IMG/VR virus record: IMGVR_UViG_2529293216_000012
Reading direction: 5' to 3' (one strand)
Length of the DNA: 56,801 nucleotides
From: a virus
Taxonomy: Duplodnaviria > Heunggongvirae > Uroviricota > Caudoviricetes
This document shows, piece by piece, positions 1,369-56,801 of the stretch. Positions within the stretch are counted from its first letter, which is position 1. Every line of letters starts with the position of its first letter. The notes beneath the pieces were generated by a model. It was not told the origin of the DNA. It did not search any database and worked only from the letters and a program-made list of their open reading frames with translations. The position numbers and the translations under genes are program-made.

Positions 1369-1444
1369 GCCGATATAGCTCAGTTGGTAGAGCAGCGCAT
1401 TCGTAATGCGAAGGTCGTAGGTTCGACTCCTATTATCGGCACCA
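1369..1444 (+). tRNA. thrW: tRNA-Thr (anticodon CGU)
   Basis: 76 nt GCCGATATAGCTCAGTTGGTAGAGCAGCGCATTCGTAATGCG...GGTTCGACTCCTATTATCGGCACCA; canonical D-loop, T-arm and CCA; lies directly downstream of proA as in E. coli. Confidence 0.93.
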
Positions 1445-1458
1445 TTAAAATCAATAAG

Positions 1459-2622
1459 TTACACATCATTAGTACCTTCCTTATTTTTTGACTGGGACAA
1501 ATTTGGGACCGATGGGTTCAGGATCGAGTCTATTTGCCGTGCGTGTTCGGTAAGGTGATTAGGTGCAAGGTGAGCATATCGACGAACCATTTCGATAGAC
1601 TCCCAGCCTCCCATTTCCTGTAACACTGACAACGGGACTCCGGCTTGAACCAGCCAACTTGCCCAGGTGTGTCTCAAGTCGTGAAATCTGAAATCATCAA
1701 TACCAGCCCGTCTCAGCGCCGCTTTCCAGGCTGTGTTTGCGTCATACCGCATCTTCCTTACTGTTGGCGCTTTCGTTCCGTCTGGTTTGGTACAGCTTTC
1801 CTTGTACACAAATACCCAACGGTGATGATTCCCGATTTGTTTTTTCAATACGCGACATGCAGTATCATTCAGCGCAACGCCAATTGCGCGGTTTGATTTA
1901 CTCTCTTCCGGGTTTATCCATGCCACCCGGCGCTGCATATCTATTTGTTGCCATTCAAGGTTGATGATGTTCGAGCGTCTTAAGCCTGTTGCCAGTGCAA
2001 ATTCAACAACAGACTTTAATGGCTCCGGACATTCATCAATCAGCCTTTGTGCTTCATGGGGCTCCAGCCAGCGGATCCGTTTATTCTTTGGTTGAGGCAC
2101 TTTAATAATTGGTGCCTTATCCAGCATTTTCCATTCACGCTCTGCGGCTCTTAGTAGGGCCTTTATAAATGAAAGATGCGTAGCCTTCGTTGCAACGGAC
2201 GCTGGTTTTGGCGTGTATTCTGGAACAGGTTTCCCTTTTTTTCTGCATGCTTCTGCCCTGAGTTTCCAGTTTTCCTCATGACGCCGGTTCGTCATTTTCT
2301 GCATTGCTGAATAAATTTTTGATTCAGTAATGTCTCTTAGTTGCATTCCTGCGAAATGTTGAAGCCAGAATCCGATCCGGCTTTTGTCATCGTCCAGCGA
2401 TTTTTTATGTGCTTTCTCTTCAAGCCACCTGACACACGCTTCCTCGAACGTTATATCAGGTATTTCACCAAGTTTGCTGACCCGCCATGCTTCAGCCTTT
2501 AGCTTGTCATGGAGTTCTGTCGCCTGCCTTTTGTCCTTTGTTCCAAGAGACTGTTTAAATCTTTTACCGTTCGGCAATGTGAAACTGGCGTACCATATTT
2601 CACCTCTGCGGAAGAGTGACAT
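1459..2622 (-). CDS. int: phage tyrosine integrase, P22/SfV type (thrW-specific)
   Basis: 387 aa, [21 protein letters not shown]... with C-terminal [16 protein letters not shown]...RYAHL catalytic region; stop 15 bp from the tRNA-Thr 3' end. Confidence 0.93.
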
Positions 2623-2849
2623 TTTCTTTCCTCTGTTATGCCATCACCCGCGCTCACCTGGACAGTATGCAGCGGAGACTGAAGAGCCGCAATGCAGGCT
2701 TGTCGTGTTGTGAGGTAAGGAGATTTATTCTTAGTGGGATCTTTGCGTGTTGCCTGAAGACGCCCTGTGCGTATCCAGTTAATGGCAGTCGGTCTGGATA
2801 TCTTGAGAAAATGACAGGCCTCATCGAGTGTGAGGCTGTATGGCTCCAT
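2499..2849 (-). CDS. xis: excisionase (P22 Xis-like, 116 aa)
   Basis: Internal Met of track ORF 2499..2933 chosen ([31 protein letters not shown]); HTH; overlaps int start as in P22; start overlaps upstream stop (TGATG). Confidence 0.8.
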
Positions 2850-3154
2850 TATTTCACCTCTTGTTGTGACATTGTTGAAAAATGGATACCTGCTCGTTGC
2901 TGCCAGACGATCCAACCGAGAGTCATATCCCATGCCATGTATTCGTTATCGCCGTTTTTTGCTCTCCGACGATCTACTAAGTCACCGAAACGCTTTTCCA
3001 TGAATAATTCATAAGCTTCGCGTTCATCTGGTTCTACTTCCAGAGATAGGAGTGCGATTTCATAAGCACGGCGCTCAATATCGTCTCGCACGTCAAGGCT
3101 GCTGATACGCTCTTTAATTTCTTTAATCAGTTCTTTGTCGGTAAAAGTGGTCAT
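2849..3154 (-). CDS. hypothetical lambdoid early-left protein
   Basis: 101 aa ORF translationally coupled to xis and to the upstream ORF; no family recognised. Confidence 0.55.
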   Translation of the reverse strand: MTTFTDKELIKEIKERISSLDVRDDIERRAYEIALLSLEVEPDEREAYELFMEKRFGDLVDRRRAKNGDNEYMAWDMTLGWIVWQQRAGIHFSTMSQQEVK

Positions 3155-3516
3155 TATGCTCCAGCCTCCGGTGCTTTTGGCATTACTGCCCAGTGAGTGA
3201 TATTGACGTTTTCAAGGTCCCCGACCTGAAATGTCCACTGCCATTCTCCGGTTTCTTTTTGTCCCCAGGTGTACCAGAGAGAACGCCAGCCAATTAGCCA
3301 GCCTTCTCCGTTAGCATCGAATAACAAAACACTTTCATTTGCTGGTGGCAGTTCAGTTGACACTGGTATTACTTTGTTTTCCTGTGCTGCACATTTAGCT
3401 TCAAGCGCATCGAATTTACGCACCAGGTATTCAGCATCTGTTTCATTCACTTTCAGATCTCGCGGTACACATCTCCCACGAAGAAACCCTTCCATTTCGA
3501 AAACATTCATGCGCAT
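3154..3516 (-). CDS. hypothetical phage protein, DUF551-like
   Basis: 120 aa, Trp-rich C-terminal region (WLIGWRSLWYTWGQKETGEWQW) typical of DUF551 early-region proteins of lambdoid phages. Confidence 0.55.
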   Translation of the reverse strand: MRMNVFEMEGFLRGRCVPRDLKVNETDAEYLVRKFDALEAKCAAQENKVIPVSTELPPANESVLLFDANGEGWLIGWRSLWYTWGQKETGEWQWTFQVGDLENVNITHWAVMPKAPEAGA

Positions 3517-4070
3517 TTGCGTAACTCCGATAACTCGTTAAAACGTTCCATAAACATCCCGTAGGCATGGCCCGGTGCCTGTGGAATCACTTTGAACATC
3601 TCTGTTGCCGGGATACCTTCCAGTACAGGCCAGAAAGAGCCATCATCAAGCCCGAGATCGCGGCGTTCGGTTGCCAGCATAATGAGATCGGCATATTTCA
3701 CTGGCGTGCTCATAACAGGAGGTAACCCGTATTTCTCACGTATTACGGCGTCTATTTTTTCTTCCATCCGTTTATAGTCAGGAAGAAGTCGTTTCAGTGG
3801 TGCGGGGATGTCCTGGCAATATGCTTCTGTTGCATCATGCATTAAAGCTTCAAAAGCAAATTCCTGTGGCACCAGCTGGCTGCAAAGCACCGCATGTTGG
3901 GCGACACTGTAGAAGTGTGAAAGATGTCCTGCAAAGCGACAGATATTTGAAAGGGAAACCGCGATATCGTTAATAACGATGTCGTCTTTATTTATCCTGT
4001 CATAATAAAAATGCTTCCCGGAAAAAGTTTTAATAAATGACATTTTGTTCTCCACGTATATGCGCTGCAC
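3507..4070 (-). CDS. HD-domain phosphohydrolase (YfbR-like 5'-deoxynucleotidase family)
   Basis: 187 aa with HD motif context (ALMHDATEAYCQDIPAPLK); overlaps the downstream ORF by 10 nt. Confidence 0.65.
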   Translation of the reverse strand: MQRIYVENKMSFIKTFSGKHFYYDRINKDDIVINDIAVSLSNICRFAGHLSHFYSVAQHAVLCSQLVPQEFAFEALMHDATEAYCQDIPAPLKRLLPDYKRMEEKIDAVIREKYGLPPVMSTPVKYADLIMLATERRDLGLDDGSFWPVLEGIPATEMFKVIPQAPGHAYGMFMERFNELSELRKCA

Positions 4071-55515: not shown

Positions 55516-55631
55516 TCCTGGTTAAATTTCATTTTTCGCGGGTATAAAAAAACGATGGGGCGGGCAGTCCGGAAGACGTCAGGTCACAGGGATTTGACCC
55601 GCCCCTCCCCTCTGGCAGTGGGAACTGGTTC

Positions 55632-55982
55632 TTACTTCAGCCGTTCACGGGCCGTCTTCGCCTTATGACACGGCCAGCACAGGCTCTGCAGATTGCTGTC
55701 GGCATCAGTGCCGCCATGCGCTTTAGGGATGATGTGGTCAACGGTTTTCGCCTCGCGCACCACACCGGCACGCAAACACAACTGACACAGGCCTTTGTCA
55801 CGCTTTAGTACACGCCCCCGGATAACATCCCATTTCGAACCATAACCGCGCTGGTGTCGGGACTGGCCTGGCTTGTATTGCTTCCAGCCCTCGCTTTTGT
55901 GGCTTTCGCAATAACCTGACGGGTCAGTCGTGGTATGGCGGCAGCCGCGAACTCGGCAGGCTTTTGGGGTTCGTGGTGGCAT
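55632..55982 (-). CDS. HNH endonuclease (terminase-associated)
   Basis: Internal ATG at 55982 with GGAG RBS (MPPRTPKACRVRGCRHTT...); Cys/His HNH motif (CQLC...DHIIPKAHGG...CWPCH). Confidence 0.8.
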   Translation of the reverse strand: MPPRTPKACRVRGCRHTTTDPSGYCESHKSEGWKQYKPGQSRHQRGYGSKWDVIRGRVLKRDKGLCQLCLRAGVVREAKTVDHIIPKAHGGTDADSNLQSLCWPCHKAKTARERLK

Positions 55983-56102
55983 ATGTACTCCAATGAAGAA
56001 GCTACCGACATAGCCTCCTCCATTCGTCGTGAAACTATTTTCATCTACCCAGTAATGAATTCTTTGAAGAGTTGTAATCAATACAACTCGCTAATGGAGA
56101 GG

Positions 56103-56124
56103 CTTGTCTCACACGTGAGACAAG
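56103..56124. other. GC-rich hairpin in the HNH-bor intergenic region
   Basis: CTTGTCTCA-cacg-TGAGACAAG, 9-bp perfect stem, in the AT-rich region between HNH and bor. Confidence 0.3.
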
Positions 56125-56507
56125 CTTCCTGTTTGATTTACTGGACACTATAGAAGGACAGAATGCCTTCCTCACTCGAATCACATCAATTAAGGAGGTT
56201 CAACATGTTTCATTCCACAAGTCATCAGGCTGTAATTATGGCAGCATCAGTTTGTGCCACAGACCTTTTCCGCTTCACTTTGAGCCTGATTCATTTCTAC
56301 CTGACCGGCTCGCCTCTATCTTTTTAATCCCCGCTTTATCCAAATTGCATTGCCAGAATGCCGACAACAGACTGACATTCAAATCCTGACTACCTCCAAT
56401 AGTCTGACCGTACACCTATATAGTTTTAATTTTCATCAATCCATTTAACTATCGTTTAATTGTTGTCACATAGGATTCTGCCGTTTTTAACAATGCAGGA
56501 TAATAAG

Positions 56508-56801
56508 ATGAAAAAAATGTTATTTTCTGCCGCTCTGGCAATGCTTATTACAGGATGTGCTCAACAGACGTTTACTGTTGGAAACAAACCGACAGCAGTA
56601 ACACCAAAGGAAACCATCACCCATCATTTCTTCGTTTCGGGAATTGGACAGGAGAAAACTGTTGATGCAGCCAAAATTTGTGGCGGCGCAGAAAATGTGG
56701 TTAAAACAGAAACCCAGCAAACATTCGTAAATGGATTGCTCGGTTTTATTACTTTAGGCATTTATACTCCGCTGGAAGCGCGGGTGTATTGCTCACAATA
56801 A
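56508..56801 (+). CDS. bor: Bor/Iss-family outer-membrane lipoprotein (serum resistance)
   Basis: Internal ATG of track ORF 56460..56801 (MKKMLFSAALAMLITGCAQQTF...); lipobox ITGC; recognised as lambda Bor-like; opposite strand to the late genes as in lambda. Confidence 0.9.
   Translation: MKKMLFSAALAMLITGCAQQTFTVGNKPTAVTPKETITHHFFVSGIGQEKTVDAAKICGGAENVVKTETQQTFVNGLLGFITLGIYTPLEARVYCSQ

Follow-up and report, generated by a model that had tools for sequence, protein, structure and literature searches.

A hybrid invertase crossover site joins a Mu-like phage to the late region of the thrW prophage in Escherichia coli O157:H7

Din systems, such as the G segment and Gin of phage Mu, the C segment and Cin of P1, the P segment and PinE of e14 and Min of p15B, are built around an invertase with Resolvase and HTH_7 domains, inverted 26-bp sites located in a tail-fibre gene, and C-terminal cassettes, each with its own Caudo_TAP gene, that are found in both orientations in nature. 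Cross-complementation among Gin, Cin, Pin and Hin is classical, Fin of Fels-2 acts on the H segment, and invertase crossover sites have long been argued to be the joints for the swapping of tail-fibre modules between phages. In work attributed to Iida, Sandmeier and Arber, Cin is said to act at secondary (quasi) crossover sites and Min of p15B to be a multi-site, shufflon-like system. PinQ of Qin inverts the e14 P segment (PMC12529663), the phase variation of e14 is PinE-dependent (PMC4272514), and large prophage-mediated inversions have been described in O157:H7 (Iguchi et al. 2006, as cited in PMC6379469). Here we consider the IMG/VR record IMGVR_UViG_2529293216_000012, a stretch of 56,801 nucleotides that genome matches assign to E. 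coli O157:H7 (hereafter "the window"; coordinates are those of the whole stretch), in which the invertible tail-fibre switch of a Mu-like phage appears to have recombined with that of the prophage resident at the thrW tRNA gene, named PhiT below.

We consider it likely, and hold it with good confidence, that this locus arose in two steps, namely transposition of the Mu-like phage into PhiT and then an inversion in which a serine invertase recombined the gixL site of the Mu-like phage with the pixR site of PhiT. The parental elements have the invertase, sites, cassettes and assembly genes of ordinary Din systems, but the partner sites used here come from two elements about 38 kb apart, whereas those of Din systems are the two sites of one segment, and the DNA inverted would be a whole prophage late region plus the right end of the Mu-like phage instead of a cassette block of 2-3 kb. 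As in the trans-acting cross-talk between Din systems, the invertase and the sites of different prophages are mutually compatible; there, however, the foreign enzyme flips a segment between that segment's own sites, whereas here the joining of one site from each prophage has left permanent hybrid sites, made a fibre gene chimeric and rearranged the chromosome. The locus resembles the Cin quasi-site and Min systems in that non-identical sites recombine, the changes are local to the central dinucleotide and more than two sites give interconvertible arrangements, but the extra sites are bona fide sites of a second phage that Mu transposition has brought into cis. It also shares with the O157:H7 prophage inversions end-points lying in two prophages of one O157 chromosome; those inversions, in the account given by the citing article, use long lambdoid homology and RecA-type recombination, unlike the 26-bp site without flanking homology found here. 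In the literature, of which older subscription papers were incompletely covered, we found no report in which invertase sites of different prophages recombine with each other to invert a large block and to swap cassettes.

The first genes of the window are proA (1-1254) and thrW, a tRNA-Thr(CGT) gene (1369-1444, plus strand; ARAGORN), the 3' part of which contains the attL copy (1399-1445) of the 47-bp att repeat of PhiT. Next to it lies the left arm of PhiT (1459-4187, minus strand), made of a tyrosine integrase gene, int (1459-2622, minus; Pfam Phage_integrase, E=3e-48), followed by four small early genes on the same strand (annotated as an HTH/xis-like gene, yfdT, a phage protein and yfdR) and by a pseudogene that the Mu-like insertion has reduced to a 3' stump. 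From 4188 to about 37.5 kb all genes except a repressor are on the plus strand and belong to the Mu-like phage and then to a tail-fibre segment, and from 56081 down to 38133 a minus-strand block carries complete HNH, terminase, HK97-type head, contractile-tail and fibre genes; the GC skew changes sign at about 37-38 kb. The iss/bor lipoprotein gene of PhiT (56508-56801, plus strand, recognised by its translation and annotated as "iss" in FRIK944) has its stop codon on the last base of the window and is on the strand opposite to the late genes, the same relation as in the intact prophage. The original prediction, made from the letters of the window, had placed a minus-strand int with small early genes beside thrW, the lambdoid late region on the minus strand and bor on the plus strand, and these positions agree with the tRNA call, the Pfam matches, the annotation and the translation. 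Its boundaries were only partly right: the late block is on the minus strand as stated, but PhiT DNA continues to 4187 and not merely to the end of the early genes given as 4070, and of the 37.5-56.1 kb proposed as late region only the part from 38627 is late region, 36736-38600 being the invertible tail-fibre segment of PhiT.

The chromosome of FRIK944 (locus L001, where the L001 coordinate minus 616 gives the window coordinate in the left arm) provides the intact form of PhiT. FRIK944 328616-332804 matches window 1-4189 on the same strand with 100% identity, as do many O157:H7 chromosomes at proA-thrW. The match to window 36718-56801 is FRIK944 364423-344356, a single collinear block of 99.9% identity on the opposite strand. 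In FRIK944, PhiT is bounded by 47-bp direct repeats of the thrW 3' end (L001 2015-2061 and 40199-40245, about 38.2 kb apart) and reads from the int arm through cI/cro-like regulators, replication genes, a Q-type antiterminator, holin, lysozyme, Rz and iss to HNH, terminase, head, tail, fibre, the invertible fibre segment and pinE. Since the int arm and the late region are contiguous in this att-bounded prophage, they can be taken as parts of one prophage of about 38 kb; judged from these alignments, the two blocks of the window are one prophage and not two phages, and their arrangement is an inversion rather than a normal layout. An integrase-type thrW prophage is thus recognised in the window by int and attL, but its late genes are on int's own strand and attR is beyond the window, whereas in FRIK944 the late genes are opposite to int and both att repeats are present, which is the normal polarity. 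Comparison with related genomes had been put forward as one way to check the inversion, and the opposite-strand match to FRIK944 bears it out: closed O157:H7 genomes, in which arm and late region are contiguous, support the reading that a Mu-like element entered a lambdoid-type thrW prophage, the late region of which became inverted relative to the thrW-proximal int.

At the left breakpoint, between 4187 and 4188, PhiT sequence gives way to the exact left end of a Mu-like phage of the Sp18 type, TGTAACCAGG. This end starts at 4188 with TGTAACCAGGTGAATC (a longer read of the same end is TGTAACCAGGTGAATCATTTGATACC), and identity to FRIK944 stops at 4187-4189. Of 5426 closed E. coli genomes, 1213 carry the same left end, at numerous chromosomal positions and with matches beginning at window 4184-4188. 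The insertion interrupts a small pseudogene of the PhiT early-left operon. Mu transposition makes a 5-bp target duplication, and the ACACC adjoining the left end (4183-4187), of which a single copy is visible in the window, is presumably the target sequence; by analogy, a second ACACC would be expected at the right end of the Mu-like phage. In the O157:H7 380-94 prophage (L002), both ends of which are visible, the flanking 5 bp are unlike (GCACC vs CACCA) and form no clean 5-bp repeat.

The Mu-like part (4188-36722, plus strand) runs from the left end to the constant part of its tail-fibre gene and is 98.6-99.8% identical to, and collinear with, the 380-94 prophage up to window 36743. It contains the MuA, MuB, left-end repressor and Mu-type late genes of its class, but the genome is incomplete in the window: it ends at 36722 inside the fibre gene, with the invertase, com, mom and the right end lying beyond.

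The right breakpoint is at a 26-bp crossover site (36710-36735, plus strand), TTATCGATAACG-TT-GGTTTGGGAGAA, which occurs once in the window against 0 expected and is a hybrid of two parental sites. Each parent has two 26-bp elements in inverted orientation around its invertible fibre segment: gixL, TTATCGATAACG-TC-GGTTTACGGGAA, and gixR, TCCCTGAAAACC-TC-GGTTTACGGGAA, in the Mu-like phage, and pixL, CTCTCGAAAACC-TT-GGTTTGGGAGAA, and pixR, TTTTCTTAAACG-TT-GGTTTGGGAGAA, in PhiT. The outer half of the hybrid is that of gixL, and its centre and inner half are those of pixR. In a three-way alignment, identity to the Mu-like phage holds through 36722 and identity to PhiT from 36718, the parents being dissimilar on both sides, which places the exchange within 36718-36722, at the centre of the site and inside the Mu-like tail-fibre gene. 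The native pixL is at 38601-38626 (minus strand), inverted relative to the hybrid; the two sites have 12-bp half-sites around a central dinucleotide, presumably resemble the published gix/hix consensus, share GGTTTGGGAGAA and TT, and coincide with an inverted repeat (I1) of 24 nt that is 92% complementary. Serine invertases such as Hin and Gin make a staggered 2-bp cut and join the halves at the central dinucleotide, and by analogy the same mechanism would account for the junction in the window. Because the junction is internal to the Mu-like phage and at the centre of a crossover site, it points to site-specific recombination by a serine invertase and not to transposition.

The enzyme could have been supplied by either phage. 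In the parents, pinE and a gin-like gene adjoin their own segments, both encode Resolvase and HTH_7 domains, and the two proteins are identical at 134 of 184 positions (73%); one of these, the Gin-like invertase or PinE, is taken to be the acting enzyme. A tblastn search found no serine invertase gene within the window; in the rearranged locus, the invertase genes are predicted more than 30 kb further right. Such systems depend on supercoiling and on a Fis-dependent enhancer in cis, which is normally in the 5' part of the invertase gene.

The exchange has produced a chimeric tail-fibre gene (36193-37095, plus strand, 300 amino acids) made of the constant N-terminal part of the Mu-like fibre and the alternative C-terminal cassette of PhiT, with a Gp53-like_C domain at residues 208-299. 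As the four parental sites share one codon frame, the fusion is in frame. Only 4 contigs on record encode exactly this protein; it was matched with the start at 36193, whereas the translation from the longer reading-frame start at 36139 had no match on record. The cassette belongs to the invertible P segment of PhiT (36736-38600), which is 100% identical to FRIK944 L001 34542-36406. On the plus strand, 36736-37559 carries the fv' cassette and its assembly gene tfa' (37107-37559; Caudo_TAP), and on the minus strand tfaE (37531-38133; Pfam Caudo_TAP) is adjoined by the fv cassette (38133-38600). Opposed C-terminal cassettes, each with its own assembly gene (Gp53-like_C, Collar and, twice, Caudo_TAP), are thus present as in Din systems. 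The P segment is found in both orientations in closed O157 genomes, flipped in one locus (L005, with an in-frame 220-residue fusion) and as in FRIK944 in another (L006), and it is therefore an active switch. In the window it lies between two convergent constant parts of fibre genes, those of the Mu-like phage and of PhiT, so that each of its orientations gives one cassette to each phage.

An inversion between gixL and pixR should also leave a reciprocal product. The protein that we built for it by prediction begins on the pinE side, with the ATG immediately beyond pixR, crosses the hybrid site and continues into the Sv cassette of the Mu-like phage. The resulting sequence of 139 amino acids (the Sv allele of P0001) is exactly EKH42294.1, a "phage tail fiber" of E. 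coli FRIK1999 on a 56,320-bp contig. The chimera of the window is itself EKH42608.1, 314 accession numbers away, and from this proximity both proteins very probably come from the same draft genome; FRIK1999 is probably the strain from which the window derives.

The proposed course of events is as follows. A Mu-like phage would first have transposed into the early-left-operon pseudogene of the approximately 38-kb PhiT, between 4187 and 4188, in the same orientation as the PhiT late operon. The order would then have been thrW, int ... E / MuL ... S_c [gixL] G [gixR] gin ... mom MuR, continuing as E' ... cI ... Q ... lysis ... head ... tail ... fibre_c [pixL] P [pixR] pinE ... attR, where S_c and fibre_c are the constant parts of the Mu-like and PhiT fibre genes. 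The Gin-like invertase or PinE would next have recombined gixL with pixR, with strand exchange at the central dinucleotide. As the two sites are in inverted orientation, such recombination inverts everything between them, here a block of about 38 kb. From the Mu-like phage it would take in the G segment, gin, com, mom and the right end, and from PhiT everything between the insertion point and the fibre gene, with cI, Q and the lysis, head and tail genes. The outcome of the model, S_c [hybrid] P [pixL] followed by inverted fibre_c, tail, head and terminase, is the arrangement of the window. From the lengths in FRIK944 and 380-94, we infer window coordinates of about 68.4 kb for the Mu right end and of about 74.7 kb for the reciprocal site. 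The Mu right end would thereby be displaced by about 32 kb and reversed, so that the Mu-like phage would be unable to pair its ends for transposition, and the circle formed if Int/Xis excised PhiT would be about 76 kb long and would not fit the PhiT capsid. With the Mu ends so oriented and the PhiT circle oversized, neither prophage could leave its position until the inversion is reversed, a step that the hybrid sites should in principle permit.

Several observations weigh against this reconstruction. The window stops short of the right-hand breakpoint, of the Mu right end and of both invertase genes, so that the size and integrity of the inverted block are deduced from the parental genomes, and EKH42608.1 is placed in FRIK1999 by its nearby accession number. 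Every hybrid is from a draft or Logan assembly, none from a closed genome: 0 of the 5426 closed E. coli genomes cover window 1-6000, window 35000-41000, the 851-bp fibre junction or the reciprocal type of fusion, and from this absence we regard the hybrids as rare, recent products and not as an established phage lineage. The central dinucleotide is TC in the reference Mu-like sites and TT in the pix sites, the hybrid having TT, and unlike central dinucleotides normally disfavour productive inversion by Gin and Hin. The TT of the hybrid could result from segregation of a one-base heteroduplex, or the parental Mu-like allele could already have had TT; a TT-centred Mu-like allele is seen at the S_c-side site of another locus (L014). 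Apart from these points, the hybrid sites are absent from the IMG/VR viral contigs, and the open reading frame (ORF) predicted across the junction of the Mu right end with PhiT has no match on record. The sialate O-acetylesterase/DUF6645 gene, used as an anchor toward the right breakpoint, retrieved only an unrelated normal Mu-like prophage (L020), and a look-up of ymfQ gave ordinary closed-genome contexts only, in which the P segment occurs either way round.

Of the alternatives, the one that survives best, although we find it improbable, is that the junction is an assembly artefact or belongs to a minority sub-population, the true genome having the parental orientation and the assembler having taken a wrong path through the invertible segment. 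Besides the absence of hybrids from closed genomes, this would fit the presence of the reciprocal product on a separate 56-kb contig, the source being probably a draft, and probably a short-read, assembly, and the heterogeneity of invertible segments in cultures (PMC4272514). However, a hybrid 26-mer whose parents share only 5 contiguous bases is impossible by repeat collapse, so reads must span it; both reciprocal junctions are assembled in FRIK1999; and a window-like fibre junction has been assembled independently in a Logan contig (L003, SRR8924463), which repeats the arrangement of the window over the 20.9 kb compared. That contig is unbranched through both ends of the P segment, which argues that the segment is single-copy in it.

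It is very unlikely that the minus-strand late region is a second, independent prophage in its normal orientation with its own int and att further right, a possibility that the original prediction had left beside the inversion. O157 genomes do contain many similar prophages and the window ends at 56801, but the late region is 99.9% identical to the very thrW prophage whose left arm sits at thrW here, and the reciprocal hybrid uses sequence just outside pixR, that is, the pinE side of the same prophage. This product, together with the physical fusion of the late region to the Mu-like phage through the hybrid site, contradicts a second lysogen. RecA-dependent homologous recombination between the tail-fibre genes of the two prophages is extremely unlikely. 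Both phages have Mu-type tail modules, and homologous inversions between prophages do occur in O157:H7 according to the summary of Iguchi et al. (2006) in PMC6379469, but at the junction the parents have only 18 of 26 bases alike, no identical run longer than 5 bp and unrelated flanks, leaving no homology to act on; moreover the exchange is exactly at the central dinucleotide of a recombinase site, and identical half-site exchanges recur at other site pairs. Least credible of all is an inversion made by intramolecular replicative transposition of the Mu-like phage, the cause suggested initially on the grounds that transposable phages are known to produce inversions and adjacent deletions: the left junction is indeed a true Mu end, but replicative inversion leaves a full Mu copy, and hence a Mu terminus, at each border, whereas here the border falls 32.5 kb into the Mu-like phage, in the middle of the crossover site of the fibre gene, and the window contains no Mu right end.

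Related assemblies show that the invertase-made inversion preferred here has counterparts at other pairs of sites. Like L003, a 97.8-kb contig of GCA_011836255.2 (L004, L015) is among the four contigs with the chimeric fibre; in it, a near-identical Mu-like phage interrupts PhiT at the very beginning of the portal gene (window coordinate 53124). The P segment of PhiT (1902 bp, 100% identity) lies in it between S_c and gin of the Mu-like phage, the Mu G segment lies between fibre_c and pinE of PhiT, and hybrid half-sites are found at all four ends. A gixL x pixR inversion and then a gixR x pixL inversion would be expected to yield this swap. The mirror single inversion (gixR x pixL) is found in four Logan contigs (L014, L016, L018 and L019), where the G segment lies between the converging fibre genes of PhiT and the Mu-like phage. 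Single inversion, mirror inversion and full cassette swap therefore all occur in natural isolates. The insertion at the portal gene is present in at least four NCBI assemblies of another O157 lineage. In the Mu tail genes, the Logan contig that repeats the arrangement of the window and the swapped contig of GCA_011836255.2 (L003 and L004) differ from the window by the same 13 substitutions; from these substitutions and the different position of its Mu-like phage (4188), the window can be assigned to a separate lineage that formed an identical hybrid site.

It is possible, though on balance doubtful, that the switches of the two phages have merged into a four-site, shufflon-like system that reversibly inverts blocks of 20-40 kb, each with the full late operon of a phage, and passes receptor-binding cassettes between phage families in two inversions; the Mu-like phage with the PhiT P segment in GCA_011836255.2 would be an example of such a transfer. 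With the same 13 substitutions, L003 and L004 differ in arrangement, S_c-P-pixL-fibre_c (inverted) in the former and S_c-P-hybrid-gin in the latter; if they come from the same or sister isolates, the block of about 22 kb between the sites flips on a short time-scale. Another Logan contig (L017, SRR11909393; 10001-14160) passes from PhiT fibre_c through a hybrid site to the Mu G segment and directly on to gin and the right part of the Mu-like phage. Since this order cannot be reached from the co-oriented parent by one inversion or by two, it points to a Mu insertion in the opposite orientation, a deletion circle or some additional rearrangement. Two independent Mu insertions in one 38-kb prophage are more than expected at random, an excess that may reflect our search for hybrids, which need both phages in cis. 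In the second of them (L004 17401-18651; L015, AAQYMI020000018.1), the insertion at the portal start creates a 416-residue ORF that fuses the Mu end with the portal.

Intermediates of fibre-module swapping, namely a single inversion, its mirror and the completed swap, can thus be seen at base-pair resolution in natural isolates. The proposed mechanism would add to homologous recombination and transposition another way by which co-resident prophages may rearrange the chromosome of a pathogen and immobilise each other. For annotation and outbreak typing, a late region on the wrong strand beside a truncated Mu-like phage need not mean a misassembly or two prophages. If the four-site reading is true, unrelated temperate phages have a site-specific route for the exchange of host-range modules, and a prophage can become locked into the chromosome.

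The inverted late region of PhiT (38627-56081, minus strand) was delimited by its 99.9% opposite-strand identity to FRIK944 and its genes by annotation and Pfam; the contractile tail is of the Mu/SfV type, the baseplate of the Mu type and the head of the HK97 type. All on the minus strand, the constant part of the fibre gene (to 38903), ymfQ (38907-39491) and baseplate J (39482-40540) are followed, in window order, by genes for gp46, gpV, baseplate proteins and a DNA-circularisation protein, and by those for the tape measure (43965-45800), tube (46211-46567) and sheath (46567-48063). The head-completion genes, the HK97-type capsid (50073-51302), an S78 protease, the portal (51908-53134), TerL (53282-55015), TerS of the P27 family and HNH make up the remainder. 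In the region 41500-42579 and 42576-43946 (both minus), a baseplate assembly gene that is annotated as frameshifted in FRIK944 is intact here and encodes 359 amino acids. The late region is 16 bp longer in the window than in FRIK944, with one gap that may correspond to this frameshift.

In the Mu-like part, a CI-type repressor (4555-5166, minus strand; Pfam Phage_CI_repr) is followed on the plus strand by the MuA transposase (5600-7690; Pfam Mu-transpos_C and HTH_Tnp_Mu_1) and the MuB ATPase (7762-8694; Pfam Phage-MuB_C). Ner-like, gam, mor, lysis, head and contractile-tail genes are also annotated, and the Gam, Mor, gpT head and Mu Gp37/41/45/48 families are represented by annotation and Pfam. 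The alignment with 380-94 is broken at 25222-25232, where about 56 bp of 380-94 have no counterpart in the window. This break is close to a 380-94 feature annotated as "tRNA-OTHER"; ARAGORN finds no tRNA in the Mu-like part of the window, and no tandem repeat explains the break. In the right part of the Mu-like phage, as seen in other strains (L002 7471-9489 and L004 13149-15188), a sialate O-acetylesterase gene (SASA plus DUF6645, NanS-p-like) lies between gin and com/mom; its alleles have 88.9% DNA identity between strains, against more than 98% for the rest of the phage.

Two further observations concern the thrW locus in other genomes. Directly beyond the attR of PhiT in FRIK944 (L001 40199-41588) there is a second tyrosine integrase together with an "ABC-three component system" defence island, so that in O157:H7 the thrW site holds PhiT and another integrative element in tandem. 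In some O157:H7 genomes (L011, CP038287.1, 6570-8965), an IS3-family element of the IS629/IS1203 type replaces PhiT from just past bor to the gp46 baseplate gene; deletion derivatives of this type are presumably the short Sp1/Sp2-type remnants present at the same locus in reference strains.

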